A stretch of DNA of 35,882 nt from NCBI GenBank assembly GCA_016840085.1, contig JAEOTA010000068.1, positions 1 to 35,882 on the forward strand. The letters are read 5' to 3'. This stretch comes from Promethearchaeota archaeon (GTDB lineage Archaea > Asgardarchaeota > Lokiarchaeia > Sigyniarchaeales > SOKP01). This document shows positions 9,619 through 32,746 of the stretch, piece after piece; position 1 is the first letter of the stretch, and each line of letters begins with the position of its first letter. Under the pieces are notes generated by a model that worked only from the letters and a program-made list of their open reading frames with translations, was not told the origin of the DNA and did no database searches. The position numbers were made by a program, and so were the translations under genes.

Positions 9619-9715
9619 TTATAATTATAACTATAGTTAAAACTATAATATTTAAATATTTATATTGATACTATAATAATAAATATAATGATAACTATAT
9701 TTAAGACTATAGTCT
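9619..9715. promoter_or_regulatory. Divergent AbrB/TFB promoter with repeated ACTATA motifs and palindromes
   Basis: ACTATA at 9630, 9642, 9670, 9694 and 9706. Perfect palindromes TAACTATAGTTA (9628-9639), AATATTTAAATATT (9647-9660) and AGACTATAGTCT (9704-9715). Confidence 0.55.
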
Positions 9716-9724
9716 GATAATAAA

Positions 9725-14511: not shown

Positions 14512-17049
14512 CTATTTATTTATTTGAAGATCTACATCGCAATTATAACATTTAATCGATTCACCACTAATATATTTTTGAACTAATTCATGTGAAATGT
14601 AGGAATAACAATATGGGCAGATATTTGAGAGTATTGATACTCTCAAGTCGTAAAATTTATCCTCTGTAGCTATTACATTACTTTGGATTAATTGTTGTCT
14701 TATTTTATCACCCATTTCCGCAAGAAAGGCAGTTATTTGCTCTTCATCATTTCCAGAAACCTCTACTTTTAGAGTCCGATTTTCACCATCCAATAGGACA
14801 TATGTGATGACTTGGTTTTTTTTAACCTTGGTAATTCCAAAATACCAAGCTTCTCCAAGTCTATCTTCCTCAGAAAAATCTTTAAAGATTAATTTTATAT
14901 CAAATTTGCCTAGGACTGATATAACAGAAGAAAAGACCGAAGAGCTATATGTATTATCCACAATTGGAAATATCCTTTTATCTTGATGTGTAAGCCTGCG
15001 TCGAAGACTTTTAACTCTAGCTAAATTTGCGTCAGTTTCAGTAAAGAATATTGGACATGTAATTGAAACCATTTTAGGTTCCATGGGTATGGCTCTTGGT
15101 TTATCTTTCACATTATAAAAGCTAACTGTAGCATTGACAGGGCTTTCCATACAATTAATCGGTTCTAAATAAAGAGAGACTGCCTTTTTTTCTTTTGCTC
15201 CCAATTTAGCAATTAATATACTATCTCCTTTCCGTTCGTAATCAGGTTCGTGTAAGATCCACTTTAATGCTTTTGGAATGTCAAATGTAATTTTAAAATT
15301 GGTTAATGAGTATTGTGTATTATTTTTTACTCCGACTTTAAATCTAATTTGCCCACCAATAAATTCATATTCTCTCATAATTGTTACAAGTTTTTTTGCC
15401 TGCTCTTCCTTTATTATTGGTGGAATTTCATGTGATATTATGTCATCAACTTTAATTTTTGCCTTAGCTGTTATTGGAGTTATACCAATCAATTTATCCA
15501 TTTTCTCTTGTAGGTCTGATTGAAATGCTCTAGCTTCAATTATTCTTTCTTGTAATTTTTCTACAATATCTTGAAATTCGTTATATTTCAATGCTTTTTC
15601 TTTTGCTTGAGAATATCTGAAAATAATATCATTGACAAGTTTTATTGTTCCTGTAAGGTCTTTTTTTTGAAAATTATGGGCATACTTTAGATCTTTGTCA
15701 GAATCTAGATATGTTTTTTCGATCTCGAGCCGCTTAATATTCATTTGAATTGAACTTATGCTATTTTTAAGATCACTGTAAGATTTACTTACTTTTTTAG
15801 TTTTTATTAACTCCATAGCTAATTGTATGTTATCGATGGCTGAATGCCATTCATCTTTTGCTTCTTGTAGGTTCCATTTTTTATATCTTTCTTTTCCTTT
15901 TACCGTGTGAACTCTAGCATTTTCTATGTAGGCATTATATATGCTTTCTATGAGAATTTTTAAGTTGTGTTTAATTCTCTCCTTTTCTATAGCTTTTTTC
16001 AACAATTCTTCATAGTAGGAAATGGCTTCCTTCCATTTTTCAATAGCAACATCAAATAATTTTTTTGAGTAATTTTTTTTACCTTCATTCACCGAATCTC
16101 TTGCTCTTCTTAAAAGAAGTTCAAATTCATTTAGTAGAAGTTCTTCTTCTTGTGTTTTGATACTAATATGGTACTCTTTTTTACTTGATAAAAGAAAATT
16201 GAAAAGAATTATAAAGGAAATAGCACTAATTGAGCCCAAAATACTGGATATACCCAAAAACATTCCATTAATTAAGAGAATTAATATTAAAAATATAGCT
16301 TCAAATCTTTCGAAAAAATCAATAATCTTTGTTGATAATTTTCTTGGAATTTGTATCTCCTTAGACTTTCTTGTTGGTACTAGGCGGCTTTCTTGATGCT
16401 TGACTTGATCGAAATTATATTCAAGCCTAAGAAGTACTAAAGCAATGGCATAAATCGATCCTAAAGCTACCCAGACACCGAAAATGATTTGCCACGTAAG
16501 CCATCCATTAAAATATGTAGATTCTCCTATAATACATAGATGGATACAGATTCCAAGCCAAAATGGGTAGAATAATATCAATGATTTTATTACCCTTCTA
16601 TAACGTTCAAAATTAACTGTTCCAAAATAATATATTACAATAGACCATGAATAAATTCCAAAAAAATATGATGAAAAGGTATTAGTGATAATAAGGTATT
16701 CATCAGTTAATGTTGGCCATTCATATATCCATACATCCCATTCAATTTCAAGATCTATTAAATGAGATATTGCTGTCCCTATATCAATCCACCATAAAAT
16801 AAAGAATGTTAATATAGGTAGAAATAAGCTAATTTTTCTTAATTTTTTTATAATTAGAATTCCTACACATGATAATATAATATCTATGAGAATGGTCCAT
16901 GCAATTATTGATTGGTAAATAGGAAAGCCCCAAGGAGTAAGCTTTGGTTCTGGAAATCTGAAAACTATAGTTAAAACCGTGCCTATTATTGAAACAATTG
17001 TTATTAAGGCAAGAAATATTATTATTCTAATTTTTGTTCTATATAACAT
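14512..17049 (-). CDS. Multi-pass membrane protein with helical TPR-like region, adaptin-appendage-like domain and terminal Zn ribbon
   Basis: About 8 hydrophobic segments in aa 1-290, then helical repeats (AIEKWKEAISYYEE). A beta-rich REYEFIGGQIRFKVGVKN...VSLYLEP...VSITCP segment is followed by an alpha/beta segment and CPYC...CYNC. Confidence 0.7.
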   Translation of the reverse strand: MLYRTKIRIIIFLALITIVSIIGTVLTIVFRFPEPKLTPWGFPIYQSIIAWTILIDIILSCVGILIIKKLRKISLFLPILTFFILWWIDIGTAISHLIDLEIEWDVWIYEWPTLTDEYLIITNTFSSYFFGIYSWSIVIYYFGTVNFERYRRVIKSLILFYPFWLGICIHLCIIGESTYFNGWLTWQIIFGVWVALGSIYAIALVLLRLEYNFDQVKHQESRLVPTRKSKEIQIPRKLSTKIIDFFERFEAIFLILILLINGMFLGISSILGSISAISFIILFNFLLSSKKEYHISIKTQEEELLLNEFELLLRRARDSVNEGKKNYSKKLFDVAIEKWKEAISYYEELLKKAIEKERIKHNLKILIESIYNAYIENARVHTVKGKERYKKWNLQEAKDEWHSAIDNIQLAMELIKTKKVSKSYSDLKNSISSIQMNIKRLEIEKTYLDSDKDLKYAHNFQKKDLTGTIKLVNDIIFRYSQAKEKALKYNEFQDIVEKLQERIIEARAFQSDLQEKMDKLIGITPITAKAKIKVDDIISHEIPPIIKEEQAKKLVTIMREYEFIGGQIRFKVGVKNNTQYSLTNFKITFDIPKALKWILHEPDYERKGDSILIAKLGAKEKKAVSLYLEPINCMESPVNATVSFYNVKDKPRAIPMEPKMVSITCPIFFTETDANLARVKSLRRRLTHQDKRIFPIVDNTYSSSVFSSVISVLGKFDIKLIFKDFSEEDRLGEAWYFGITKVKKNQVITYVLLDGENRTLKVEVSGNDEEQITAFLAEMGDKIRQQLIQSNVIATEDKFYDLRVSILSNICPYCYSYISHELVQKYISGESIKCYNCDVDLQINK

Positions 17050-17059
17050 TTTTTAGTCA

Positions 17060-18037
17060 TTATTTTTTAAGTCTCTTTAATTTTTCAAAACACTCTTTAA
17101 TTGTAGAGTCATCCTCATTGAAAATTTGGAAGTAAAGTCTAGAAATCGGATTTGAAGCACAGAAAAAATCATTTTCTTTTGTTGCAATATATTTTAACTC
17201 CTCTTCATCAAGTTCATCAATAAATTTCTCATAAAAAATCAATTTAGCTAATATTATTTGTCTTAATACAGGAAAAGAATAAATTAAAACATCAGTGTCT
17301 TCTATTGTGGCACATCCTCTCTCGTTTATTAAAAGCGACAATGCTTTTGAGCATTGTAAAACATCTTTAAAAGATAATTTCGAACTTAGTTCACAATGAG
17401 TTAAAATTGTGCTTATCGTATTTTCAACTTCATATTCTTCTTCATACCCAAATCTCTCTTCATATTCTTCCAATTCTTTACGAGGAACAAGTTGAATTTC
17501 TTCAGGGAGTTTTTCTAACTCTTTTTTAGTCTTTTCAAAGTTAAATTTTTTACAAAATTTGTGTTCCATCTCTGTCTCTCTTTGAAAATATTCTAAAAAC
17601 CGATCTTTGTTAAATCGAAACCTATTTTCTTCAACCATTTCTAAAAAATCAGTCATATATCTAATTAAATTCTCATCAGAGGTTGAAAAGATCCCATTTT
17701 CAATATTCTCGGAATTTTCATCTAAGAAGCTTCCAAAATCATAATATCCTATGCGCACATGTCTACAAATGCCTTTACATAAGAATTTCTCTGGACAGTT
17801 TACAGCATTAAAAAATTTTCTAGCAACAACAGGTTCTTCGCCATTTATGGATATTGCTGTTCCTTTAAGATTTCCTACCAACTCAAATAACTTTGTCAAA
17901 TCTTTATCTTCAGGAGATTCAAAATTTATTTTATAATATCTGTCTTCTATAAATCCCCCATGTTTTTCTGCTAATCTAATAGCTTCAGGGACATTTTGTC
18001 CGCTTGATTTTGAATTAAATTTAAATTCTATTTTCAT
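17060..18037 (-). CDS. Hypothetical acidic protein with Cys/His cluster
   Basis: GAGGTGG SD-like site, 38 bp after the Mre11-Rad50 stop; contains CPEKFLCKGICRH. Confidence 0.75.
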   Translation of the reverse strand: MKIEFKFNSKSSGQNVPEAIRLAEKHGGFIEDRYYKINFESPEDKDLTKLFELVGNLKGTAISINGEEPVVARKFFNAVNCPEKFLCKGICRHVRIGYYDFGSFLDENSENIENGIFSTSDENLIRYMTDFLEMVEENRFRFNKDRFLEYFQRETEMEHKFCKKFNFEKTKKELEKLPEEIQLVPRKELEEYEERFGYEEEYEVENTISTILTHCELSSKLSFKDVLQCSKALSLLINERGCATIEDTDVLIYSFPVLRQIILAKLIFYEKFIDELDEEELKYIATKENDFFCASNPISRLYFQIFNEDDSTIKECFEKLKRLKK

Positions 18038-18075: not shown

Positions 18076-21000
18076 TTAATTAAAAATTTTTGACTTGCCT
18101 AACTCATCCCATCCAATCATGATTCGATGTGGGAATTGTTCTGCAACATCTTCTAAATGAGTGATGAGAATAATTTTCTTAAACATTGATTTCAATTCTA
18201 AAATTTTTTCTACAAAACGTTGTCGGGCTGATTCATCATCCAATGTTCCAAGATCTCCTTCATCAATAAACAGTGTGTTTGATTTTCGAAATAATGCCCC
18301 TGTCGTATCTGGAATCTCTGCGATATGCTCCATTATTGCAAATCGGATAGCCGCATTAATCTGAGTCTTTTCGCCGCCTGAAAAACTACTTGCTTCTCGG
18401 TCACGTTCACCATCAAAAACATTGATTTCAAATCCAACCCTTTTTCCCTTTAATGGTTTAAATGTAATTTGGTTAAATTTCCCATCAGTAAGATCGCTTA
18501 ATATTTGTGAAGCACTAACTGAGATAGCAGGGAGAATTTGCTCTACCGCAAACTTAGGAACTCCATTAAGATGGAAAATATCTTCTCGTAACAACTTATA
18601 TTTTTCAATGTTATCTGTAATCTCTTGTATTTCTTTTTTTATTCGCTTAATTTTACTCTCTTTTTCTTTTATCTTTTCTATATCTTTAGCAATGAAATTG
18701 ATTTCTACTTTTAATCCTTCTATTTTATTTTCCAATTCTTGGAGTTCTTGTTGTTTTTTCCCATATTTATTAGCAATCTCTAAATATTGTTGATATGAAG
18801 ATTCTAATTTTAATAATTTTTTGTTCAGTTTTCCCAATTCGCTTTCTTTTTGTGTGAGATCTTCTTCGCTTTTTTCAATCATAATGGAGAAATCTTTTAT
18901 TTCATTCAATTTACTTTCTATTCCTTCTCTTTCTTTCTCAGTATCTTCTATTCTCTTGAATCCTTCCTTAATTTTATTTAATTGTTCCTTAAATTCAGAA
19001 ATTACTCCTTTTTGTTTCATATCTTTATTTAATGTTTGAATTTTTTCTGAGAATGTAGAGATCTCAGTAATTTTCTTTTTTTCTATTCCATTATATTGAT
19101 TCATTATTGTGTCTTTATCACTCTTAATCTCATCAGCAATGAAGACTGCTTTAGTAATTTTTTTTTGCTTGGGTTTAATTTCTTCTAATTGTTTATTTGT
19201 TTGACTTTCTAATGAAGTAAATTCTTTAATACGTGTGGTATCATTATATTCTTGTGCCATGGGAATCTCAACGTTCTGGAGTCGATAGAGCCTTTCCGTT
19301 AGCATTCCATTATCTTTTAAAATATTGAACGCATCGTCTTTTGTTATAGTGACATCTAAGCTTTTAAGAGTAACATCCTTCTCATTTATTTGTGTTGATA
19401 AATTTTCTAATTGTTCATTATATTGTTTCTCAGTTTGTTGCACCAAATTCTTATTGCTACTAATTTCAGATTGAAGTAATTCAAGCTCGTGAATCACTTT
19501 TTCAATTTCTTCTTTTTTAATTTGTAATTCCTTTCTTTCTTTTTTCACATCTGGTAGATTTTGTAATTTATTTTGTAGTTTATTATATTCTTCTTGCTGT
19601 TGCTTATATTCTTTCAGCTCTGTTTTATCCTCCTCGATCTTTTCTTTTATCCCTTCGATTGATTTTTGAGTAGTTGTATAATTAAAGGCATCCGTCTGAG
19701 TGGCTTCTGTTTTTTCTTTTAAATCCTTTATAGTATTTGATAATTCAGTTTGTCGCTTTCCTTTCTCTTGGAGTCCTTCATTTATTTCTTGTAACTCTCT
19801 TTCTTTTTGAGGTAGTTCCTCAAGAAATTCCTCTAACCCGATAATCTCTCCTTCAAGAGTGGCTTTCTTACCTGTGAAATCATCAATCGTAGATTTTAAA
19901 TTTTGATATATATTGCTGAATATCTTCAATTTAAATAATTTTACAAGCCTTTGTTGCCTTTTTTCTGTTGTTAGAGTAGAAAAGATCTGAAGTTCTTGTT
20001 GTCGTATGAAAAAAGAAGATGTAAAACCTTCATAATCATACCCAATGATATCTTCCAATTTTTTCTCTTTTTCTGGAACGCTAAGTCCAGAAAATAAGGG
20101 ATCTCCATTATACTTTATTTGTAATTTTGGAGATGTCTGACTCCTCTTTACTGATAAGTTCTTATCTCCAATCAATAATTCTAAGGAGACATATCCACCT
20201 TTGTATAGGATCTCATCTAACGTAAGACCCACATCTTTTCGAGAATTTCTTTTAAATACTGCAAAAGTAATAGCATCTAAAATGGAAGATTTACCTGAAC
20301 CTGTAGGTCCTTTAATAACATATAGATCTTCATCGAAACTTATTTTATTTGGCCCTTTTCCATATTTATTAAAATTTTGCATATCAATCGATTTAATAGA
20401 TAATGAACCTTTTGCGGTAAGATCTACTAGCGATAATTCTCTATCTAGCAATTCTAATCCGATATTTTTTAGATCCTTATAATAGTTATGAGTAGCATAT
20501 TTTTGTTCTAGAAAATCTTTAAATAAGCTTTTGGGATCTAAGTTAACTTCTCTTAATTTTGGACTTTCTTTAAAAGCTTTCTCTATGTAAGTTAGATCAA
20601 CATTATAAGAAGACTTGAAATAGTTATCTAATTGATATTTATCAAGGCTAGTCTCTTTCCCTTGAGGATAGTGTATTTGGATTTTACATACAGCTTCTTT
20701 AATTTTTTCTTTTTCTGGTAAATGGTTTAAGGAATATTCGGTTAGGTCTTCAGCATCATCAGGTATTTCAATCTCATGCTGTAATAATTTTCTACACTCA
20801 ATTTTTCGAAATTCTATATCATTATTTTCTACATCATATACGCAATAAAATTTATCAGAATTTCTCTCTCCCATATCAATTCTATCTATTGAACCAGGAA
20901 TAATTATTCGATCATCATTCCACATGGTTTGCTTTAAATGAATATGTCCAAATATAACGAGATCAAAGTATTCTTTTTGAACCATTCCTTTATTGAAATG

Positions 21001-21681
21001 AAATTCTCCATAAATCATAGATGGATTGTTAGTTTCCCTGATTTTTGCCCCTTCCAAATAATAATGACCTAAGAGAATTCTTTTATCACATTCTTTTAGT
21101 TTATTTTCACAGGTCTGTTTTATAAAGGTTCTAAAGATATGTTGCGTAATTATATAATTATCTTTGTCTTTAAGAAAGTCTTCACTTATTATTCTCTTTT
21201 CCTTAAAGATGTTCACTAATACATCAAAGTGAAGATAGGGTAAAAATATAAATCCAATCTTACTCCCATTAGTCTCTATTACTTTCGATCTTATACTCGT
21301 ATATACCTCAACATTTGAAAAATTAGCTAACTCTTGAATATCCACCCCTCGTTGTGGATTTCTTGTTGAATCATGATTACCTCCTAGAATAATTGTGTTA
21401 ATATTACTCTGATTTAGGGGAAGGAAAATTTTTTCTCGTACTATTTTTCTAATGGTAGGGGAAATACTTTTTCTGTGGTATAGATCTCCTAAGAAAATTA
21501 CAAAATCAGCCTTGTCTTTAATGGCTTCATTTATGATTTTTTCACAGTTATTAATGACATCCAAACTTCTTTCAGAAATATTAAGTTCATAATTTTTCCG
21601 GTAAGGATACGTCTTTCCAAAATGAGTGTCCCCAACAAAATAAATTTTTGTCATATTCTTTTCAACTTTATTTATTTTCAA
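18076..21681 (-). CDS. mre11-rad50: Mre11/SbcD nuclease fused to Rad50/SbcC ATPase; likely start ATG 21654
   Basis: Phosphoesterase motifs GDTHFG, GDLYH, GNHD, LGH, GHIH, PGSIDRIDMGE. From aa ~427: Walker A GPTGSGKSS, Q-loop FIRQQE, coiled coil, signature FSGGE, Walker B FIDEGDLGTLD, H-loop ITH. Confidence 0.95.
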   Translation of the reverse strand: MKINKVEKNMTKIYFVGDTHFGKTYPYRKNYELNISERSLDVINNCEKIINEAIKDKADFVIFLGDLYHRKSISPTIRKIVREKIFLPLNQSNINTIILGGNHDSTRNPQRGVDIQELANFSNVEVYTSIRSKVIETNGSKIGFIFLPYLHFDVLVNIFKEKRIISEDFLKDKDNYIITQHIFRTFIKQTCENKLKECDKRILLGHYYLEGAKIRETNNPSMIYGEFHFNKGMVQKEYFDLVIFGHIHLKQTMWNDDRIIIPGSIDRIDMGERNSDKFYCVYDVENNDIEFRKIECRKLLQHEIEIPDDAEDLTEYSLNHLPEKEKIKEAVCKIQIHYPQGKETSLDKYQLDNYFKSSYNVDLTYIEKAFKESPKLREVNLDPKSLFKDFLEQKYATHNYYKDLKNIGLELLDRELSLVDLTAKGSLSIKSIDMQNFNKYGKGPNKISFDEDLYVIKGPTGSGKSSILDAITFAVFKRNSRKDVGLTLDEILYKGGYVSLELLIGDKNLSVKRSQTSPKLQIKYNGDPLFSGLSVPEKEKKLEDIIGYDYEGFTSSFFIRQQELQIFSTLTTEKRQQRLVKLFKLKIFSNIYQNLKSTIDDFTGKKATLEGEIIGLEEFLEELPQKERELQEINEGLQEKGKRQTELSNTIKDLKEKTEATQTDAFNYTTTQKSIEGIKEKIEEDKTELKEYKQQQEEYNKLQNKLQNLPDVKKERKELQIKKEEIEKVIHELELLQSEISSNKNLVQQTEKQYNEQLENLSTQINEKDVTLKSLDVTITKDDAFNILKDNGMLTERLYRLQNVEIPMAQEYNDTTRIKEFTSLESQTNKQLEEIKPKQKKITKAVFIADEIKSDKDTIMNQYNGIEKKKITEISTFSEKIQTLNKDMKQKGVISEFKEQLNKIKEGFKRIEDTEKEREGIESKLNEIKDFSIMIEKSEEDLTQKESELGKLNKKLLKLESSYQQYLEIANKYGKKQQELQELENKIEGLKVEINFIAKDIEKIKEKESKIKRIKKEIQEITDNIEKYKLLREDIFHLNGVPKFAVEQILPAISVSASQILSDLTDGKFNQITFKPLKGKRVGFEINVFDGERDREASSFSGGEKTQINAAIRFAIMEHIAEIPDTTGALFRKSNTLFIDEGDLGTLDDESARQRFVEKILELKSMFKKIILITHLEDVAEQFPHRIMIGWDELGKSKIFN

Positions 21682-21701
21682 TTACTATTAAAGAGTTATT
21701 T

Positions 21702-23378
21702 TTAGTCATCTTCTAATGTCGTTAAATCTGATTCTTCAATAGCTTTAAGAGTTGCTGAAATTGGTACTGTTATTTCTAATTTTTCCTTTAACTTTACTTC
21801 ATCCTTATAATTTAGTACTTCAACTATAGAAGGTACAGCCACAGCATCCCCTCTTACGAAACATTCCCTTTTTTGAAGTCCAGAAATCACCCCACGCCAT
21901 TTTTTTGCATCCGGTAGAGTTTGTACTACCCGTTTTATATCTTTATCATCAGTCATATGCATTACAAAAGTATTTGCGATTTGGGAATACACTTCTTCAT
22001 CAATTTGAGAGGGTCTCTGGTCAACAAAAGCTAGTGTTAATTGGAATTTTCTTGTTTCTCTAGCTATACTATCAAAGATTGTATGTTGAATAACACTTGG
22101 TTTTAGAAATTTATGTGCTTCTTCAACCACTACGACTAATGGGGGCAATTTGCTTTCATCTTCTTTTTGAGAGTACATAGTATATAATCTTCTCGTAATC
22201 ATGTTTGCCACAAATAGATATAAGTGAGAATTTATGCCATATTTTCCAAAATCGATTACTATTGATTTTCCTTCTAGTAATTTATTAAACATATGTTCTA
22301 AGCTATCTTTTCTTTTACTCTCTCCTCTATCTCTTAAGAATTCATATCGTTCAAATCGAATTATTCTATTTTGTAGTGCATTTAATGTCATACTGTGTAA
22401 CCCATAATCTTCAGCCTGAATATTGTTAATCGCATCCAATAGATTATCATGTGCAAATCCTTCAGTCTGTAATAGCCCCTCGACGCGAATTAGGGCGTTT
22501 ACTGAAGCTTCTCTCAATGTCTGAGCACTTGCGATAATATCTCCCGAAGTGATAGTATCTTTATAAACAAAAAAAGGTTCTGCGCCATCTATTACTTCTT
22601 CTTCCTTCTCTATATCACTAAGCCGATAAATCTGAATTTTATCTAAAAAATAGTAAGCTAATCCTTTTGTCTTATCCGAGCGTGATATTAACCCATATTC
22701 ACCTTGCATGTCAAATAATACTAATTGAGAGACTTGGTGCTTTAAAATGAATAGACATAAAATTTTGTTTAATATTGATTTACCAATTCCTGTTCTTCCA
22801 AACAGACCATAGGGTTTTTCTACTAAAAGTTTAAAATCTATTGGTACTTCATATTTAAATCCTCGAAGGGTTCCTATTACATCTGAGTACTCGGACACTC
22901 TATAGATAAGGTTTATCTCCTCGTCAGTAACTCCTCGTCCTTTTGAAAAGATTGGCGGAATGGTATCAAATCCACGCATTAATTCTTGGTATTCTAATTC
23001 GTCTTTTGGTTTACTCGGTAATACTCGAAGACAGCTTAAATCAGCAAGTCCATAAAATTCTTTTCCTCTTACACCTTCTATTTGTGGTGGCGGTAGCAGA
23101 CCAGTAAAAGGAGTGTTCGCAAACTTTTCAGCTAATTCATTGCTAGGATAATACAATCGTGTAATTAATGTATAATACAGCAATTTATCGGTCTCTATCA
23201 CTAGTGGTTGACCAAGGCGTAAATCATCAGGACGTCTTTGGATCTTCAGAGTGATTACACTACTTGGAGGTCCTGTATCTGCGGAACAAACTTCTCCAAT
23301 TTTATTGGGTTCTTCTATTGTTTCTAATCCTTCTAATTCAATATTTAATTCATTATTTTCTTTATCTGACATTTTCAT
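21702..23378 (-). CDS. herA: HerA-family DNA translocase/helicase
   Basis: N-terminal HAS-barrel-like region, Walker A GRTGIGKS, FDMQGEY, Walker B VVVEEAHKF, arginine-finger motif ARETRKF, DQRPSQID. Confidence 0.93.
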   Translation of the reverse strand: MKMSDKENNELNIELEGLETIEEPNKIGEVCSADTGPPSSVITLKIQRRPDDLRLGQPLVIETDKLLYYTLITRLYYPSNELAEKFANTPFTGLLPPPQIEGVRGKEFYGLADLSCLRVLPSKPKDELEYQELMRGFDTIPPIFSKGRGVTDEEINLIYRVSEYSDVIGTLRGFKYEVPIDFKLLVEKPYGLFGRTGIGKSILNKILCLFILKHQVSQLVLFDMQGEYGLISRSDKTKGLAYYFLDKIQIYRLSDIEKEEEVIDGAEPFFVYKDTITSGDIIASAQTLREASVNALIRVEGLLQTEGFAHDNLLDAINNIQAEDYGLHSMTLNALQNRIIRFERYEFLRDRGESKRKDSLEHMFNKLLEGKSIVIDFGKYGINSHLYLFVANMITRRLYTMYSQKEDESKLPPLVVVVEEAHKFLKPSVIQHTIFDSIARETRKFQLTLAFVDQRPSQIDEEVYSQIANTFVMHMTDDKDIKRVVQTLPDAKKWRGVISGLQKRECFVRGDAVAVPSIVEVLNYKDEVKLKEKLEITVPISATLKAIEESDLTTLEDD

Positions 23379-23400
23379 ACCTCTTTTTAAAATAATTTTT

Positions 23401-24474
23401 TTATCTTGATATTTGATCTAAAATTTCATGAAAAGAATTAAATTCTCTTCCATCCATATCGACAGCACCATCCAAAATGTCTTCAGATCGTAATCCTAAT
23501 TTTTTGAGCTCTCTTAAGAGTTCTAATTCATAGGACTCTTTAAAATCCCTCACACTTTTTGCCAATTTATGGGCTTCTATCAGACCAATTGGATATCCTG
23601 GTAATAAATGAACCATAGAATATGCTGCAATAGAAGAAAATAATTGTTCCTTGTCTAATATATCATGGTTAATGTCTACTCGAAACCATTTCACTGCTTC
23701 TCTATGTAATTTTGCAAAATGAACATCTCCCCAATAATCGAATTTTGTCTGCTGTTCAATTACCGCTTCAGGAACATATACATAAGTTAAATCATAGAAT
23801 TGTGTATTATAAAATTTTTTCAGACAATAATCATCAGTATATTGATTCTCTAAGAAATGTGTGCTTGTTGATTTAGATACACCAGCAAATAACACATTAT
23901 TCATTCTACAATTAACTAGGATTCGTGTATAAATATCTTCTCGTTTTAATTCTTTAAAAGTGAGTAATGCTCCATCTTTTACAAGAATGCAATTTTTTCG
24001 AGTTTCCGAGATTTTCTCTAATGCTTTATCTTCGAAATAACTCATAATATTCGAAGCAAAGATTTGAGGTTTTCTTTCTTGAAATCTACTTGCAATTTCT
24101 GAGGCATTAGAAAAAATCTGTGGTTGTGAAGCTAAAACATTTTCATTAAAACTTAGTAAACTAAGATTATCATAAATCTTTGGTGGTGATTTAATGCAAT
24201 AATTTATTCTTCCCTTTCTCATTTCAATACAGTATTCTGTTACAGCAATTCTAAAAAGAACAATCCATGTCTCAGCACCTAAAAATGAAAATAAAAAGCA
24301 ATATGAACCGTCAACCGATATTAATGGTAACACTTCTTCCATGTTAGAAGGTAGAGAAAATGTTATTGCTTCAAGTTCAGGTTTCTTACCTTCTTCTCCT
24401 TCGTCTTCCTCATATTCTCCTAACTTCGCTAGTTTTAATAACTCGATAACATTTTGGATGTCTTTATCTTTCAC
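23401..24474 (-). CDS. nurA: NurA-family nuclease (GTG start)
   Basis: ISVDGS, LVKDGAL, AGVSKST and GYPIGLIEAHKLA; 22 bp upstream of herA. Confidence 0.9.
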   Translation of the reverse strand: MKDKDIQNVIELLKLAKLGEYEEDEGEEGKKPELEAITFSLPSNMEEVLPLISVDGSYCFLFSFLGAETWIVLFRIAVTEYCIEMRKGRINYCIKSPPKIYDNLSLLSFNENVLASQPQIFSNASEIASRFQERKPQIFASNIMSYFEDKALEKISETRKNCILVKDGALLTFKELKREDIYTRILVNCRMNNVLFAGVSKSTSTHFLENQYTDDYCLKKFYNTQFYDLTYVYVPEAVIEQQTKFDYWGDVHFAKLHREAVKWFRVDINHDILDKEQLFSSIAAYSMVHLLPGYPIGLIEAHKLAKSVRDFKESYELELLRELKKLGLRSEDILDGAVDMDGREFNSFHEILDQISR

Positions 24475-24568
24475 ATTAAAACCCTTATAACTTGTCTTTT
24501 ATATTTAAATATATAATAGTTTTATACTTAATTGTTAGCAAAAATATCACCCCTTTTTTTACCTCATT

Positions 24569-26848
24569 TTACCTTGGATCGTAAGGCACAATAATATCTT
24601 CCTTAGTTAATTTTGCTAAATTCTGAACAATGTGGAGTGGCAATATTGTTTTTGGCTGTTGAAATAGAGAACTCCAGTCTAAATAACGTAAATCATTAAA
24701 AATTCTCACTATCTGTTCTATGTTCATATTATTATTAATTTGATAGGTAAGATTTAGTCGCGTTGAAGAAGCAGTTCCTATTCTTGGTTTCGACGTGACA
24801 ATTATCGCATCATGTGGATTTCGGATTAACCCAGAATAATTTACTCTGTATCCATATTTTTCTTCACCATAAAATCTATGCAGTCCTCGTTTAATAGCAG
24901 CAATGACTTTAATATCAGATTCTTTTTCCATAATATGTTCTTGAAGTAACCTTTCCTTAGCCAACAGGGCCCCTTTTTGATATTCTTTTCTTTCAGAAGG
25001 ATAGATTGGCCCATCTTTAAAAAGAAAGATAGTATCAATCTTTTTATTATCTTCAATATCATCATATGTAGATGTTGCCAAGTCAAAGAACCAATCACTT
25101 AAAACTTCAGCAATAATTTTCTCTCCTCGATGGGTATCTATTGAGTTTTTGTATAAGATTCTACCAAGATTATCACATACAGCAGCATATGCAGCAGCTT
25201 CTTTTCTTGTTTCTGGATTCCTTGAGACATCAAACCCCATGAAATAATTATTTTGATTTGGGTTTAGACCACCTGCTGGGCTTTTTAAATGCCAGATTGC
25301 TTCACCGCAACCTAAATATCTTCCATACGCTTTGAGAGCGATATTATAATTCGAAAAAGAGAATCCGCCTTTAAGACTAGCACTTAATAATTCGTTATAG
25401 GTTTTCCATTGAATCATTTCACTTTTTACCAAATGCCTTCCTAGACCTCTCTTCGCAGCAAAATATGTTTTCATAAGATTACTTTTTGGCAATAGTACAA
25501 TGGCAATTTGATCTGTTATTTCTTGTCCAAACTTCTGACATATCCGCATATATCTATCAGGATGAATTCTATCAACCGGAAACAAATTACTTAGTTTAAA
25601 TTCTCCTAAATGTAATTTTTTTGTGTGTTTATTCAAGTAATTATGAAATTGTTTCAAGTGTTCAATTTCACTTTCGGGGGCTACATAACTTATTGGAATC
25701 GAACCCTTTACGTCCACAGGTCCATATTGAAACATAGCATTTTTAATATCTGGATCTGACCAAGGTTTATCAGGTCTACATATGCCACCATTACCAAATT
25801 GAAGGATTGGGGCATTAAGATAGATCTGACTACCGAAATTCACACTCTTATCATTAAGATTAAATAATTTCCTTTCAAATACAAGTTCAGTATTGCCTAA
25901 CTTTAAACCATCTCCTAATATTAAATCAAAAAGTTTGAAAGTCTCTTGTATACGGATTTTTGGTGATAAAGATTTTTTTTCTAAAAATACATTATCAGGA
26001 ATAATCGGATCTAATAAATCAATAACAATTTCTAACACCGATGGGGGATAAGGGAGTGGTTTAGTATTTTTCGAAATTTCAAGTAATAAGGTTGGTTTGT
26101 CATTGGGATTTAATGTTACATGATTTCTCTGAAGCCATCTTCTATGAGGTTCGCTTGTTGTCCAATATTTATACACTGAAGTAGGCTCTCCATCTTGTCC
26201 TTCGAATTTATATTCTTGAATAGAAATATCTATGATATCAACAATTTTGGCAGTAAAAGACCTGTATTTTGATACACTTGGATATTTTACTTTCTTTTTT
26301 AATAAATAGATATTTAACGCACTGAAATTATTATTTTTTGCCCAGGTAAGAAATGAGCTCATTTTAAATTTCCATTTGGTAGTAGGATCTAACCAGACAC
26401 CCACCTTCCCATCTTGTAAGACTTCTACCTCTGAGTAGAATGCATTATAAAATGAAAAGAAATCTTCTTTATAAGATTTCTTATTGTGATATTTCTGACC
26501 TTCAGAACGGGCAAATCCAATAGAAAAAGCTTTTTGTTTAATTAGACTGTTAACGAGATGATTAAGAATCGTATTATGTTCTTTAGTATTTAGAATAATA
26601 TTTTGATCTAATAAAATAAATTTATAATTATTGATCTCAAACTTTTTAAGTGGACTTGTTCCATTTTCTACAAAATAGATTTTATCTCCGTATGAGGTAG
26701 TTGGAAAATTATTATTAAAGAGCTTCCATTCAGCTCCCTTTATTATTCGATAATAATCATCGGGAGGTATTGTACTATCGGATGAATATACTTTCACAGG
26801 TAGTTTTCTCAATGGTTCATCTCGGGTGACAAACATATTAATATTCAT
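24569..26848 (-). CDS. ago: Long prokaryotic Argonaute (N-L1-PAZ-L2-MID-PIWI)
   Basis: L1 VGVWLDP; PAZ TSVYKYW...DKPTLL...PYPPSVL; L2 LSPKIRI...LNAPILQFGNG; MID TYFAAK...SEMI...NIALK; PIWI MGFDVSR (D540), RGEKI (E576), FKDGP (D612), IKRGLHRFY, LPLHIVQNL. Confidence 0.93.
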   Translation of the reverse strand: MNINMFVTRDEPLRKLPVKVYSSDSTIPPDDYYRIIKGAEWKLFNNNFPTTSYGDKIYFVENGTSPLKKFEINNYKFILLDQNIILNTKEHNTILNHLVNSLIKQKAFSIGFARSEGQKYHNKKSYKEDFFSFYNAFYSEVEVLQDGKVGVWLDPTTKWKFKMSSFLTWAKNNNFSALNIYLLKKKVKYPSVSKYRSFTAKIVDIIDISIQEYKFEGQDGEPTSVYKYWTTSEPHRRWLQRNHVTLNPNDKPTLLLEISKNTKPLPYPPSVLEIVIDLLDPIIPDNVFLEKKSLSPKIRIQETFKLFDLILGDGLKLGNTELVFERKLFNLNDKSVNFGSQIYLNAPILQFGNGGICRPDKPWSDPDIKNAMFQYGPVDVKGSIPISYVAPESEIEHLKQFHNYLNKHTKKLHLGEFKLSNLFPVDRIHPDRYMRICQKFGQEITDQIAIVLLPKSNLMKTYFAAKRGLGRHLVKSEMIQWKTYNELLSASLKGGFSFSNYNIALKAYGRYLGCGEAIWHLKSPAGGLNPNQNNYFMGFDVSRNPETRKEAAAYAAVCDNLGRILYKNSIDTHRGEKIIAEVLSDWFFDLATSTYDDIEDNKKIDTIFLFKDGPIYPSERKEYQKGALLAKERLLQEHIMEKESDIKVIAAIKRGLHRFYGEEKYGYRVNYSGLIRNPHDAIIVTSKPRIGTASSTRLNLTYQINNNMNIEQIVRIFNDLRYLDWSSLFQQPKTILPLHIVQNLAKLTKEDIIVPYDPR

Positions 26849-27033: not shown

Positions 27034-28158
27034 ATGAATAAAGAAAATAACCATCTTAAAGAGTTAGTAATTACATCTGTGAAAGATGGCATAGAACACG
27101 AGGAAGTTCTAGCTGATGTATCACCTTTTTGGTTTCGATACTTTTTTTATTCTAAGGATCCTCTTGGTGGTCTTAATCCTGAAAATGAATTTATCCCTGA
27201 TTTGATTAAATTATTTGTGAATCGTGAAGCCGAAATTAAAGTTATCGCTGGATATTTTGGAAAAGCAAAAAATCTACCCTATAACCTTCATATTGCTATT
27301 ATCGGTTCTAAAGGTTCTGGAAAACATACAACGTTTAAAATTATAACTAAGTTTATAAGTGAATCGTTTCCAGATATTAAGTGCGAATTTTATAATATAG
27401 AGTTTTCTTTTGATTACAAGGCTAATGAATCTTTGTCACAAAAAGAAGTAGATAGTTTCGATAATCAAAAACTTGATATCAGGATTATTTCATGTTCAGG
27501 AAAAAATAAATATCTTTTTTTGAAAAGAATAAAAGATTACAAAGAAAACACTAAATTAACTTTTTCAATTTGGCATACAAGAGACTATCCATTTGAGAAT
27601 GATATGCTTGTTAATAAAGAGATCTACTTTAATAATTTCACTTATAATGATATAATCGAGATTTTTAAAAGAAGGATGGATAAATTCCTAGAAAATTCTA
27701 AGGATTCACAACACTATTATAATACCACGATTAATGAGTTATTACCAAGAATTGGAAAATCATTTCAAGGTAATCTAAATGTATGCTTTCTCTTTTTTAA
27801 AGAGATCCATCAGCAAACGAGGGTTATGAATTTAAAAGTAATATCACCACAACTTATAGAAAATGTAATACCAAAATATTTAAGTATAAAAAACCAAAAA
27901 ATCACAACCAAAGAGCAAGAAATAATTGACTACTATTTACGATTAGACAACAGAATTTATATTACAACCTCAGATTTAAAAGATGACTTAGATTTTGATA
28001 GAACGGTTGCCTGGAAATATTTAGAAAATTTGACCAGAAAGCATGCGCTTAAGAAAATAAAATACGGAAATCCTTCTCGGTATCAAATCAATGAAATATT
28101 TTTAAGTTTTTATGAAGATAAATTAAGAAAAGACTATATATTCAAAGAAAAAGGTTAA
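27034..28158 (+). CDS. Orc1/Cdc6-like architecture: P-loop ATPase plus C-terminal winged helix, with degenerate Walker B
   Basis: FVNREAEI...IAIIGSKGSGKHT, and wHTH ITTSDLKDDLDFDRTVAWKYLENLTRKHALKK...YQIN. No hhhhDE motif is evident. Confidence 0.75.
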   Translation: MNKENNHLKELVITSVKDGIEHEEVLADVSPFWFRYFFYSKDPLGGLNPENEFIPDLIKLFVNREAEIKVIAGYFGKAKNLPYNLHIAIIGSKGSGKHTTFKIITKFISESFPDIKCEFYNIEFSFDYKANESLSQKEVDSFDNQKLDIRIISCSGKNKYLFLKRIKDYKENTKLTFSIWHTRDYPFENDMLVNKEIYFNNFTYNDIIEIFKRRMDKFLENSKDSQHYYNTTINELLPRIGKSFQGNLNVCFLFFKEIHQQTRVMNLKVISPQLIENVIPKYLSIKNQKITTKEQEIIDYYLRLDNRIYITTSDLKDDLDFDRTVAWKYLENLTRKHALKKIKYGNPSRYQINEIFLSFYEDKLRKDYIFKEKG

Positions 28159-28161
28159 GAC

Positions 28162-28959
28162 ATGCCATCATTAAGAATATATTTTGATGCTGCGGTAAAG
28201 GATACTATGGATATAATTAGACAACAAATTTTAATGGACTCTAATCATTCAGCAATATTTGATAAAAATTCAAATATTCTTCAGGCAGGATTCTACAAGA
28301 ATATATTAGAACTTGTAAATGAAAATTATTATATTTCTGATTATTTTGAAATTGGTGTAAAAAACATACCTACTCTTGAGACTGAATTATCTTATTTTAA
28401 TTATGCTGAGATTCCAAGTTTAAGTGAGAAAAGACAATATCCAATTTTAATAAAAATCATTTTCAACCCCAGAAAAAGAGTATTATGTTTTTATACTAGA
28501 GCTAAGATATCGAATAAATTAAGCGATGATCTTCTTAATAAGCTAAATACGCAATATTATTTTGTCTATAGATATCAACCCCTTTTGTTTCAATATAAAA
28601 GGGATCAGTTAGATGCCCTTGTTAATGCTTTAGGTATAAAAGACTTTACAGCAATTTCCTGTTGGGATGGCGATAACAAAGTAATCATTAAAAATCCAAA
28701 AAAGATAACTGAGACAAAAAAGTATTTGGAAATTGCCAAGGAGCAATCAAGAGGGAATTGGACTCATTTAAAGGTACCCTTTGATGAGTTAAATATAGAA
28801 TTGCGGATAAATAATAAAACACAGAATTTTATTACTTTTGAGAATAAATATATTGATGATACTCACTTAGTTAATGGTGTAGATTTTTTAATTAACAAGA
28901 TTATTGAGGTTGAAGAATTTAGCGGAAAAAAGCAGACGTATATAAATTCCTTTTATTAA
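28162..28959 (+). CDS. Hypothetical protein with C-terminal PIP box
   Basis: Lies 3 bp after the ATPase gene and 4 bp before the RM gene; ends KKQTYINSFY (Q-x-x-I-x-x-F-Y). Confidence 0.75.
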   Translation: MPSLRIYFDAAVKDTMDIIRQQILMDSNHSAIFDKNSNILQAGFYKNILELVNENYYISDYFEIGVKNIPTLETELSYFNYAEIPSLSEKRQYPILIKIIFNPRKRVLCFYTRAKISNKLSDDLLNKLNTQYYFVYRYQPLLFQYKRDQLDALVNALGIKDFTAISCWDGDNKVIIKNPKKITETKKYLEIAKEQSRGNWTHLKVPFDELNIELRINNKTQNFITFENKYIDDTHLVNGVDFLINKIIEVEEFSGKKQTYINSFY

Positions 28960-28963
28960 TGAG

Positions 28964-31900
28964 ATGGGTAAGAAATTTATGGATCTAAATAAAATATCCA
29001 AAGAAATTCTAACATTAATTAGATCTCAAACTAATATCATTAATCCAACTCAAACATTTCGTCAATATGTAGCAAAATGCCAAAGAAAAGGAATACACAA
29101 CGAAGAAAATGTGGTTCAACCTTTCACTATTTCATTTTTGAAGATTTTAAATTATATTAATCAACATAATTTAACAATTGAAGAAGTTCAAAAAGGAAAT
29201 AAGCCGGATTTTCACACGGATATCTTTATTTTAGAATGTAAATCTACAAGATATCAAAGTTTTTCAGAAAAATACGGAAGAGAAGAATCACCTAAAGAAC
29301 AATTGAAAAGATATCTGGAATCACCTGAATTTTCACGAGAATATGGTATTATTTTTTCTTTAGATCGACTGCAGGTATATAAATTAGTTGACGGAGAATT
29401 AAAAATAGTTGAGAGGTTGTCATTTTCCTTAGTTGATTTTTTTGAAAATAGAAGTTCAGATATTGACAAATTTATTTCTAAATTTTACGTAAAACCAATC
29501 ACGATTGATGAAAAGGTTCAGATAATTGCAAATACACAGAGAGAGGAATTAATTCCTATTTATCATAAAAGTTTTAATACTGTGTTAAAATCATTAATAA
29601 AAGAAATTTCTCTTGAATTGGAGACAACTTTTGTTGGATTAGATAATAAAAATGATGATACAAGACTTATAAGAGATAAGATATGCCAAATTAAGAAACA
29701 AATAGATTTAAAAACGACAATTGAAGCTGAGACTGAATATATCTCTCAGACATCTTATATAATATTAGCACGGATTATTTTAACTAAATGTTGGGAAGAT
29801 TTGGAATTAATTGACCCCCCAAATACGTATAATGGTGGGTTCAAGAAATATATCCAGGATTATCATGAAAGAATTGTAGATGTATACAAAAGGGCATTAG
29901 ACTATTCGCAAGAGATTTATTTTTTATTCAATCCAAATAACCCTTATCTACTTTTACCATTATCAGAGGAAATAATTGTTGATATATTATTTCAGGTTTG
30001 TAAATATGATTTTAATACTTTAGATTATGACATTTTAGGGTATATTTATGAAGATTATCTTGATCTGGAACATAGAAGAAAATTTGGTCAGTATTATACT
30101 CCCCCATATATAGTAAACTTAATTTTAGATAGAATTGGATATAAACCACTCCCAAATAAATTATTAGATGGATCCATTTTAGATCCTGCATCCGGTTCTG
30201 GAACTTTTCTGTTAAATACAGTGCGAAGAGTTCTTCAATCTAAACAGGATGGTCGTGATCATGCTTTAGAATATAAGGAAATTATTGAAAATAATCTCTT
30301 TGGCTCAGAGTTAATGCTTTTTCCATACCTCATCTCTGAAATTAATATTCTCATCCAATTTTCTCAAGAATTGAAAAAGATTATTCAGAAGGAAAAAAAA
30401 CTAAATGTCTTTCATGTATTTCCTAATAATTCTTTTAACTTAATAGATAAAAAAATTACTACAAGGTTATTTGGAATTCCTGAAGATGATATTAAAGGAG
30501 ATAAGATTATTGACTCTGCTATTATCAAACGGAAGGAAGATAAATTACGATTTTTACAATATAAAGCTGATTTTGATTATGTTGTAGGCAACCCCCCATA
30601 TGTGGCAAATGATACAAATCCTGACTTATTTCGAGAAATGAGAGAATTATTTACTTTTTGTAATGAGACCTATCATAATAAGATGGATCTCTTTTATTGG
30701 TTCATCATCCTAGGTATTTTAAAATTAAAGCCAAGCGGTAAATTAAGTTATATAACAACTAGGTATTGGTTAGATAAAGGAGAAAAAACAGGAGTAGAGA
30801 CTCTTAAAAAATTTATATTAGATTATTGTTACATTCGGGAAGTTATTGACCTTCGGAATGTAACAGTATTTCTTAGCGCAACTGGACAAGAAAATGTGAT
30901 TTTCTTACTACAACGAAAAGGAGATAAAATAGAGGACCAAAATATCCATATTTTTCGAATTCAACCAAGACCAAGCAAAGGCACATGTCTCTTAAATACC
31001 TGTATTTTTGAACGCGGGTATTGTATTAATGATCAGGAATATTTAGAATGTTTATGCAAGCAGGAATCTCATTGGGATAAATTATTTGATGAAGATGAAC
31101 TTCCACTTTCTAATTATATTCATGCCTTTCAATCTGCAAAAATAACAGCAGATTTAAAACCAGATAGATCTTGGGATATATTTTATCCTGCAAAAGGCAT
31201 AATAAAAGAAATTATGGATTCAATAATAAAAAGTTGTACTCGAACCATCGAAAAAATTGATAGTTTTGGGAATAAATATGTAGAAAAAAATGTTGTAAAA
31301 TACGTAAAAGATTTTTTTATTCTTCGAGTTGGGGTATTGACTACCATTGATGAGGTATTTATTTTATCTCTAGGGCTACTCAAGACTGAAGACGATAAAT
31401 GTTTGCTAAAGATTGAAAGTTCGATTAATCTCAAGAGAAGTGAAAAGCAAAAATTAGCTAATACATATCAAGGAGAGATTGACGACTCTGGTTATGTTTG
31501 GTTAGAACTATCTGAATATGAGCAACATAGATTGATGAATTTATATAAGACACCAAGTGTATATCGTCATGGATTGGATATATCAAAAATAGCTGGTAAA
31601 TTGATATTTTTCGAAGATGAGAAAGCTTATAATGATTGTCCCGTGTTAATTCTATATCTTACTCAATTTAAAAAAGAGATTGTTAAAAAATTAGATGAGT
31701 ATGAAGAACTGACTCCAACAAGACCTAATAAATGGATTACATTAAGACGAAGTGCTAATATCACCTTACCAGATAGAGCTAAACGCCCCCTTTTTGAATA
31801 TTACCGTAAAAGGCCTAAGATCTTTTATAACTACCGTGTAGGAAATAATAATATCTTTGGCTATACTAATAAACATATGGTTGCCGCAACCGATATGTAT

Positions 31901-32746
31901 TTTTTTCATAAATTTGGTGAAAATATAAATACTTATTATATGTTAGCGTATCTAAATTCCAAACTTATGACATTTTATTTTAAAGAACGACCTATAGAAC
32001 TCCAAAGACAAAAATCTAATGTAGAAAATGATATTCCAATATTTCTTCCTAGAAATGAGAATGAAGAAGTATTACAGAAATTAATCATTAGAAAAGAAAG
32101 AACTCTTACTCAAAAATTACAGAAACTGGAGAATCATTATCGAGGTAAAGGCTTTCATTTTGATTTAAGTTATACAAGTGAAGATCAAATTGAGATTGAT
32201 ATTGAGACATTCTTAGAAGGTATAGATTTGCCTACAATTAAAGATATATCTTATAACATTAAAGGGGAACTTGATATATACACAATAGACAGGAGGGATT
32301 TTCCAATTCTAATTTTAGACCAATATAAAATAAGAAAGATTGGTCGGTTTAGTGAAATGGCATCGGGCTCCGATGTTCATTTCCAATTTAAATCTTTGAA
32401 AATCGTGGTTGACCAAAATATTTATGAAAAGATAAAATTAGTTATTGAAAGTTATATTACTTTTACAGACAGTCCAAATTTCGAAAAACTCTTACAGTTA
32501 AAAATTCCTTCAAATAGAGTAATGGATGTTATAAGAATTAAGAAGACACGTCTATTTCAAAAAATATCAGGTCTTAATTCTGAAGAAAAGCTCCAAATAG
32601 AAAATGTTGTCGATAATATTTTATCTGCTCAAAAACTAGAAGAAGTTGAGCCTATCAAATATATTAGCCAAATATTATATTTCAATGACATTTCGTTTAT
32701 AAAAATGATATGCCCAGAATTTAAAGACGAAATATTAGCTTATTGA
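28964..32746 (+). CDS. Type IIG restriction-modification enzyme (nuclease, N6-adenine MTase and target-recognition domain in one chain)
   Basis: KPDF...ILECKS...QLKRYL nuclease motif; GQYYTP, ILDPASGSGTFL and VVGNPPY MTase motifs; C-terminal YMLAYLNSKLMTFYF in a TRD-like region. Confidence 0.9.
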   Translation: MGKKFMDLNKISKEILTLIRSQTNIINPTQTFRQYVAKCQRKGIHNEENVVQPFTISFLKILNYINQHNLTIEEVQKGNKPDFHTDIFILECKSTRYQSFSEKYGREESPKEQLKRYLESPEFSREYGIIFSLDRLQVYKLVDGELKIVERLSFSLVDFFENRSSDIDKFISKFYVKPITIDEKVQIIANTQREELIPIYHKSFNTVLKSLIKEISLELETTFVGLDNKNDDTRLIRDKICQIKKQIDLKTTIEAETEYISQTSYIILARIILTKCWEDLELIDPPNTYNGGFKKYIQDYHERIVDVYKRALDYSQEIYFLFNPNNPYLLLPLSEEIIVDILFQVCKYDFNTLDYDILGYIYEDYLDLEHRRKFGQYYTPPYIVNLILDRIGYKPLPNKLLDGSILDPASGSGTFLLNTVRRVLQSKQDGRDHALEYKEIIENNLFGSELMLFPYLISEINILIQFSQELKKIIQKEKKLNVFHVFPNNSFNLIDKKITTRLFGIPEDDIKGDKIIDSAIIKRKEDKLRFLQYKADFDYVVGNPPYVANDTNPDLFREMRELFTFCNETYHNKMDLFYWFIILGILKLKPSGKLSYITTRYWLDKGEKTGVETLKKFILDYCYIREVIDLRNVTVFLSATGQENVIFLLQRKGDKIEDQNIHIFRIQPRPSKGTCLLNTCIFERGYCINDQEYLECLCKQESHWDKLFDEDELPLSNYIHAFQSAKITADLKPDRSWDIFYPAKGIIKEIMDSIIKSCTRTIEKIDSFGNKYVEKNVVKYVKDFFILRVGVLTTIDEVFILSLGLLKTEDDKCLLKIESSINLKRSEKQKLANTYQGEIDDSGYVWLELSEYEQHRLMNLYKTPSVYRHGLDISKIAGKLIFFEDEKAYNDCPVLILYLTQFKKEIVKKLDEYEELTPTRPNKWITLRRSANITLPDRAKRPLFEYYRKRPKIFYNYRVGNNNIFGYTNKHMVAATDMYFFHKFGENINTYYMLAYLNSKLMTFYFKERPIELQRQKSNVENDIPIFLPRNENEEVLQKLIIRKERTLTQKLQKLENHYRGKGFHFDLSYTSEDQIEIDIETFLEGIDLPTIKDISYNIKGELDIYTIDRRDFPILILDQYKIRKIGRFSEMASGSDVHFQFKSLKIVVDQNIYEKIKLVIESYITFTDSPNFEKLLQLKIPSNRVMDVIRIKKTRLFQKISGLNSEEKLQIENVVDNILSAQKLEEVEPIKYISQILYFNDISFIKMICPEFKDEILAY

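Follow-up and report, generated by a model that had tools for sequence, protein, structure and literature searches.

The window analysed here, i.e. the whole of contig C64 (JAEOTA010000068.1, 35,882 nucleotides, assembly GCA_016840085.1) from a Lokiarchaeia genome, carries a gene encoding a long prokaryotic Argonaute (pAgo), followed by genes encoding a NurA-family nuclease, a HerA ATPase and a natural Mre11-Rad50 fusion, the four activities of the archaeal DNA end-resection machine (the resectosome, encoded by a resection operon). Such pairings recur in related genomes, with reciprocal exchange of partners, which suggests a previously undescribed way for archaeal Argonautes to obtain DNA guides. 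By analogy with known systems, it is somewhat probable (about 0.55) that Ago receives guides produced by the resectosome from free DNA ends, and that the resectosome also degrades DNA at the breaks made by Ago, as an archaeal in cis counterpart of CbAgo-RecBCD and APACE1. It is an even bet that the pairing represents a widespread archaeal immune module, with a dedicated NurA-HerA-Mre11-Rad50 resectosome as the engine that would make guides and destroy targets for interchangeable Agos, among them a clade with a D-E-D-Q catalytic site.

The literature searched, which includes papers on Asgard Argonautes, archaeal defence and NurA but few subscription papers, holds no description of this pairing, in agreement with an earlier reading of this DNA (the sequence-only reading), which knew of no characterised pAgo system with this gene set. 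The source of pAgo DNA guides in organisms devoid of RecBCD or AddAB has been stated to be unresolved (PMC12094033), and the NurA proteins characterised so far include none from Asgard archaea (PMC13748450). The locus is a concrete four-gene candidate for guide making that can be expressed and tested. If the proposed role is true, an archaeal break-repair machine, ancestor of eukaryotic Mre11-Rad50, would have been co-opted for Argonaute immunity on several occasions in Asgard archaea, the archaea most closely related to eukaryotes.

Recurrence of the pairing and exchange of partners

Among the 161 genomes of the class Lokiarchaeia, 6 of about 18 Ago loci lead a resection operon, for a chance expectation of about 0.002 (0.1 if all are confined to islands), a rough guide that assumes 3,500 genes per genome and ignores kinship. 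The Ago counts are lower bounds, because the Pfam Piwi profile missed the window genome's own Ago in the genome search. In Lokiarchaeia, the two long clades comprise five full-length Agos, all of which lead a resection operon; at paired loci, Ago is always upstream and co-oriented. If only the window Ago and its close D-E-D-Q (DEDQ) relatives are considered (47–69% identity), six of seven loci lead a resection operon or its start, the seventh (L043) leading NYN and PD-(D/E)xK nucleases. Direct ago-nurA gaps at nine other loci range from 71 to 192 bp.

Three unrelated types of Ago (DEDQ long, DEDD long-A and short pAgo-APAZ) are found upstream of three deeply divergent types of resection operon, in six of the nine combinations. 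These operons belong to a fusion type (F-type; window, L031, L042), a type similar to the separate genes of contig C6 of the window genome (C6-like; L028, L032) and a third type, whose Rad50 is long and hooked (L026, where the operon lies behind a 1388-aa insert). The exchange is reciprocal, since near-identical operons carry unrelated Agos and vice versa. Indeed, L031 and L034 have NurA and HerA that are 81% and 85% identical but unrelated Agos (23% over 196 aa), while the Agos of L031 and L026 are 82% identical but their NurA and HerA are unrelated (24%). In G073, likewise, the fusion operon is orthologous and the Ago ahead of it is an unrelated, DEDD long-A-like protein. An Ago of this type also precedes a C6-like operon in G065, and the third-type operon of G061 follows a catalytically dead short pAgo with its REase-APAZ partner. 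Mapped on the NurA tree, the Ago label must have changed five times or more along well-supported branches; the tree built for HerA is no more than a quick one.

The association also holds from the operon side. Upstream of the six best F-type homologues of nurA on contigs longer than 16 kb, chosen regardless of Ago, lie three DEDD Agos, one DEDQ Ago, one truncated DEDQ Ago and one small DEDD Ago remnant. The sequence-only reading had raised the point of whether Ago homologues are linked to these genes elsewhere; their neighbourhoods show that they are, repeatedly and with swaps of partners. Furthermore, distant DEDQ Agos (Heimdall-, Bathy- and Micrarchaeota records) lead genes for UvrD-PD-(D/E)xK (AddA/AdnA-like), Cas4-like, Exo5-like, RmuC or RNase-H-like exonuclease proteins, Cas4-like partners being found only with these distant members. 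In three bathyarchaeal and micrarchaeal loci (L039, L040, L041), the DEDQ Ago is coupled to a single-chain UvrD-PD-(D/E)xK protein. Short pAgos with an archaeal REase-APAZ partner occur behind either type of divergent head (L070 of G061, L068 and L069), and are followed by a resection operon only in G061.

This recurrence, in more than ten assemblies, already refutes a chance insertion or an assembly artefact, which would otherwise find an argument in the contamination of the genome bin (7.6%; 4.68 Mb, 29.5% GC, 98.8% complete). Since, in addition, the GC content of the window is close to that of the genome and an independent sample (L121) carries an island 90–96% identical to it, albeit with a truncated ago, such an origin is hardly credible. 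The closest homologues of Ago, NurA and the head genes belong to records named Promethearchaeota or Lokiarchaeota.

The Argonaute and the resection proteins

The window Ago is recognised as a pAgo by Pfam (Piwi, E 4e-10) and PADLOC. Its structure model (pLDDT 81) has a full-length Argonaute fold, N-L1-PAZ-L2-MID-PIWI, with full-length Foldseek matches to CpAgo, CbAgo and PliAgo (E 1e-30 to 1e-28; E 1e-30 and TM about 0.6 for CpAgo/CbAgo), whereas a search with the Ago sequence profile found no solved pAgo. In the MID pocket, compared with the [Y/K/R/H]-K-Q-K motif that binds the guide 5'-phosphate in catalytically active long-A pAgos, Y462 and K466 are kept, the third residue is E477 (Q in most of the clade) and the fourth is not securely aligned.

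The catalytic tetrad, D540-E576-D612-Q742, which maps column for column onto D585/E623/D655/H792 of HrAgo1, is canonical at three of its four positions. It is invariant in alignment A1. Across a deep clade (119 profile matches, the leading ones aligned), the fourth residue is Q, occasionally replaced by H or D, so that Q is a trait of the clade rather than a sign of decay. These DEDQ long pAgos form a deep, divergent archaeal clade (the window protein and P0014–P0070), which may deserve attention in its own right as an active-site variant; the literature searched, again with few subscription papers, holds no mention of DEDQ together with Argonaute. As the fourth residue is non-canonical, slicing by the window Ago is uncertain.

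This conservation of a non-canonical residue across a deep clade would suit an Ago acting mainly as a targeting module, which binds guide-matched DNA without efficient slicing and leaves destruction to the resectosome, much as DdmE does with DdmD. In DdmDE and in the long-B pAgo effector systems, Agos without a catalytic site are co-encoded with a helicase-nuclease or nuclease effector, as fixed partners, and the dead short pAgo preceding the operon in G061 points in the same direction. Here, by contrast, D-E-D is invariant and partners swap, free swapping of unrelated partners arguing against a specific recruiting interface. Besides, HerA-NurA requires a DNA end. Canonical DEDD Agos occupy the same slot, and a single change at the fourth position is compatible with activity (DEDN, PMC12865457). 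Globally, a pure targeting role appears improbable compared with a role in which the resectosome also supplies guides.

Two other observations concern Ago diversity. At four loci (L063, L064, L072, L139), a catalytically degenerate long Ago (745 aa) stands in tandem with another gene (about 632 aa), whose resemblance to Ago is weak. At L048 (639-1136), a short hybrid open reading frame (ORF) starts like a DEDD Ago and ends with 117 aa matching a DEDQ Ago, which suggests recombination between two types of Ago in one slot.

Among the resection proteins, NurA is the weakest identity call (Pfam E 0.014). Nevertheless, the C6 NurA, to which it is homologous, scores above the Pfam cut-off, and the window protein keeps D55, E148, D167-G168, G198-x-S200-K201 and H302 and has 46 further F-type homologues. 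HerA (DUF87, E 6e-16) displays, as read from its sequence, Walker A GRTGIGKS, Walker B VVEEAH, RETRKF and DQRPS. The fusion, about 1190–1200 aa long at all F-type loci, combines Metallophos and Rad50/SMC Pfam domains and matches solved Rad50 and Mre11/SbcD; it carries the Mre11 motifs DTH, GDLYH, GNHD and GHIH and the Rad50 motifs GPTGSGKS, FSGGE, IDEG and ITHL. The sequence-only reading was therefore right that the active-site motifs of all four activities are intact. It overlooked, however, that the fused Rad50 is hookless: the CxxC zinc hook is absent from all eight F-type copies checked, whereas it is present in C6-type and third-type Rad50. This hookless natural fusion may also be worth considering for its own sake.

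The archaeal nurA-herA-mre11-rad50 repair operon (PMC13748450) likewise clusters the same four activities with intact motifs. It differs by its separate Mre11 and Rad50 chains and the CxxC of its Rad50, whereas the window has a single hookless ORF in an operon that is patchy, mobile, additional to a resident copy and led by Ago. Nor is the fusion type a single-copy, genus-wide housekeeping locus, since it is found in 8 of the 161 class genomes and the window genome has three operons.

A possible guide-making role and its alternatives

From the gene anatomy, the recurrence and the reciprocal exchange, which are observed, the following biochemical steps may be proposed. The locus would encode a modular system against invader DNA, combining Ago and an accessory end-resection machine behind one divergent regulator. 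Mre11-Rad50 would bind and open free double-stranded DNA ends, from which HerA-NurA would unwind and degrade the DNA, activities established for archaeal homologues (PMC13748450). Short 5'-phosphorylated single-stranded pieces would then be loaded into Ago as guides, as we infer from CbAgo-RecBCD (10.1101/2020.03.01.971358) and APACE1 (PMC12094033). The guide-loaded Ago could find more copies of the invader and nick or mark them; the DEDD Agos found in the same slot have canonical sites. Lastly, the new breaks would feed the resectosome, leading to destruction of the target and production of more guides. The free exchange of unrelated partners suggests coupling through DNA products rather than through fixed protein contact.

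The pairing would thus work like known pAgo-plus-nuclease systems, while belonging to none of them. CbAgo also associates a long pAgo with a machine that resects double-strand breaks, since its guides probably come from RecBCD/AddAB and are amplified at breaks (10.1101/2020.03.01.971358). However, it relies on a housekeeping complex of the host acting in trans, whereas the window carries an accessory NurA-HerA-Mre11-Rad50 copy in cis and a D-E-D-Q Ago. In APACE1, a long-A pAgo is co-encoded with a Cas4-family nuclease, ACE1, thought to make or trim guides, and its authors propose that hosts without RecBCD/AddAB need such co-encoded nucleases (PMC12094033). ACE1 is a single endonuclease of single-stranded DNA that binds its Ago, whereas the four-activity machine described here is exchangeable between unrelated Agos; furthermore, unlike in APACE1 and APACE2, no Cas4-family ACE gene adjoins the window ago, whose neighbours are nurA and the head pair. 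HrAgo1 and HrAgo2 share with it an Asgard host and operon-encoded accessory enzymes proposed to act in guide biogenesis (PMC11217426), but the window Ago belongs to a different clade: HrAgo1 is an RNA-guided, PIWI-like DEDH protein encoded beside an RNase III and a helicase, and HrAgo2 is short. The window Ago, with its 759 aa, is also distinct from short pAgos of the SPARTA/SPARSA/SPARDA type, which are MID-PIWI-only proteins with an APAZ-effector gene, a form found in the G061 relative.

HerA itself is used outside repair in SIR2-HerA (PMC11472057), DUF4297-HerA (PMC11291478) and TdpAB (PDB 8wet), the latter with a NurA-like partner (weak match, E 0.007). These complexes lack a guide-binding subunit, whereas the window locus is led by Ago. 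To our knowledge, none of them includes Mre11-Rad50, and no phosphorothioation gene was seen here.

Several data weigh against a guide-making role. The fourth catalytic residue of the window Ago, Q, falls outside the canonical DEDX set (X = D, H, K or N; PMC12865457). No end-processing neighbour is recognised for several DEDQ Agos (L038, L044, L137-L139). The products of NurA can be very short, and might not be long enough to serve as guides. Among the class resection operons examined, 49 of 55 have no Ago upstream, and the operon can remain intact where Ago has decayed (L121, L124 and probably C84/C8, see below). OLD nucleases are about as frequent as Ago at the flanks of resection operons, where UvrD and NERD helicases are also recurrent, and the divergent head precedes other cargo at half of its class loci. 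The sequence-only reading had proposed a self-contained system, which is not supported: the operon is led by Ago in only 6 of 55 cases and persists after Ago decay, and in four relatives (G065, G096, G064 and G061) the Ago-led copy is the sole operon found. Its overall interpretation survives in part, i.e. for the linkage found elsewhere and the additional loci.

These data would also fit a shared cassette slot without mechanistic coupling: a mobile accessory operon would lie behind a divergent regulator in defence islands, in a slot that also receives membrane proteins, OLD nucleases, NERD helicases or Agos for nothing more than co-regulation and co-transfer. Ago remnants are common, Ago is absent from about 90% of resection operons, and the head pair precedes an NERD helicase and an operon without Ago (L106, L108), an Ago without operon (L043, L068) or unrelated cargo (L128-L131). 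A promoter slot collecting defence genes could therefore explain part of the Ago-operon pattern. It explains less well that unrelated Agos, under two heads, so often precede end-processing enzymes. Indeed, two heads and three Ago types converge on one order, the six nearest F-type operons all are or were led by Ago, and distant DEDQ Agos often adjoin functionally similar enzymes. A slot devoid of any coupling is thus rather unlikely.

Other cargo of these operons deserves mention. An NERD nuclease-helicase lies directly ahead of a C6-like nurA at L059, L103, L106 and L108, in one well-supported sub-lineage with or without Ago. OLD-family ATPase-TOPRIM nucleases are found inside or beside the operon at L028, L031, L034, L059, L098, L100, L105 and L121, the one at L028 forming a Gabija-like pair with UvrD. 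In L121 (11104-13602), an HATPase/SACS-NOV gene is inserted between nurA and herA.

The locus, its divergent head and the other copies in the genome

Table 1. Features of the Argonaute locus and its surroundings in the window
Feature	Position	Strand	Remarks
ago, long pAgo	24569-26848	-	759 aa; N-PAZ-MID-PIWI fold; Pfam, PADLOC, structure model, Foldseek
ago-nurA spacer	24475-24568	-	94 bp; T5 run; TATA-like box 35 nt before nurA
nurA, NurA-family nuclease, F-type lineage	23401-24474	-	357 aa
herA, HerA ATPase/translocase	21702-23378	-	558 aa; Walker A/B and arginine motif intact
mre11-rad50, single-chain natural fusion	18076-21681	-	1201 aa; nuclease and ABC-ATPase motifs intact
325-aa gene, variable accessory	17060-18037	-	38 bp 3' of the fusion
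845-aa membrane-anchored protein, passenger rather than core	14512-17049	-	relatives in the pre-nurA slot of L121 and C8
Divergent head gene 1, AAA-type ATPase, winged helix at the C terminus	27034-28158	+	374 aa; probable regulator
Divergent head gene 2, RdgC/RexA/CENP-N-like fold	28162-28959	+	265 aa; C-terminal PIP-box-like QTYINSFY
Type IIG-like restriction-modification enzyme	28964-32746	+	defence-island marker

The sequence-only reading described the four genes (Table 1) correctly, as co-oriented ORFs separated by gaps of 94, 22 and 20 bp, although it overlooked, besides the missing hook, the D-E-D-Q site and the divergent two-gene head (27034-28959). The true start of the fusion is probably the ATG at 21654, where most homologues begin, in which case the herA-fusion gap would be 47 bp. 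The co-oriented run extends past the fusion by two further genes (gaps of 38 and 10 bp). A sequence scan found no hairpin terminator between the genes of the run. No conserved internal promoter was found 5' of nurA, the TATA-like box not being kept in homologues; a sigma-70 promoter scan of the locus used a model unsuited to archaea.

At Ago loci, Ago always lies behind one of two heads, either the pair encoding an ATPase with a winged helix-turn-helix (HTH) and an RdgC-fold protein or a CARF-HTH gene. Head gene 1 is present at all the close DEDQ-Ago loci examined and also ahead of other cargo. The model of head gene 2 (pLDDT 72) matches RdgC (Z 10.6, rmsd 5.4, 221 aligned; VIA-align), and Q258 of its PIP-box-like tail is invariant. 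In 12 class genomes, the pair is divergent from varied cargo, often beside a restriction-modification gene; it is possibly a clamp-bound DNA sensor or a regulator of islands.

The sequence-only reading raised the possibility that this was the only repair locus of the genome, which is not the case. Contig C6 carries separate nurA, herA, mre11 and rad50 genes beside a UvrD gene, a context common to relatives. This UvrD gene is the only match of an AddA-like query in the host, over the helicase part. Contig C8 carries a second fusion-type operon, 54–68% identical to the window copy. The gene preceding this operon is cut by the contig end, and the edge gene of contig C84 appears to be its missing N-terminal part, as the two align end to end on one homologue from L048 (residues 31-701 for C84 and 707-790 for C8). 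Just upstream of the C84 edge gene lies a 138-bp remnant (2270-2407), 93% identical to the 3' end of the window ago. This fit and this remnant indicate that the C8 operon was probably once led by Ago, the C84-C8 join being deduced rather than assembled. A decayed fragment of the window ago (79% nucleotide identity) is also found on C71 (41981-42219).

These copies, together with the head, bear on a further explanation, according to which Ago would assist the operon in genome maintenance rather than defence, whether to repair breaks, to complete replication or to recombine incoming DNA. The RdgC-like fold and PIP-like tail of the head protein, and the four relatives in which the Ago-led operon is the only one found, are in keeping with it, and pAgos can aid replication and recombination (PMC11217426). 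Nevertheless, the patchy, fast-turnover distribution, the restriction-modification, Mrr, OLD and Gabija-like neighbours and the resident C6 operon, present here and in G073, make it quite improbable.

Regarding the C6 operon, its interpretation as universal housekeeping was dropped, operon-type nurA being found in only about 55 of the 161 class genomes, i.e. about one third, a lower bound. Weak NurA hits in many class genomes fit a stand-alone NurA-family gene of about 430 aa (C4 79469-80749 here). In L042/L126, a mosaic operon has a NurA closest to the C8 copy (83%) and a HerA closest to the window copy (78%), a sign of recombination between fusion-type operons.

By its gene content, C64 looks like a defence island, as it also encodes Mrr and CoiA nucleases and a TFB besides the Type IIG-like enzyme. 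The window has neither element-end repeats nor tRNA genes, and no relative of its Ago or HerA was found in viral contigs. The 325-aa gene has no Pfam match; its homologues lie 3' of the fusion in G003 and face the fusion on C8. Inside the island, upstream of the TFB gene, AT-rich repeated and palindromic motifs of 28–39 nt occur at 9620-9722. Finally, the window has a paralogue of the 1.6-4.0 kb region of C8 at about 4.8-7.1 kb.

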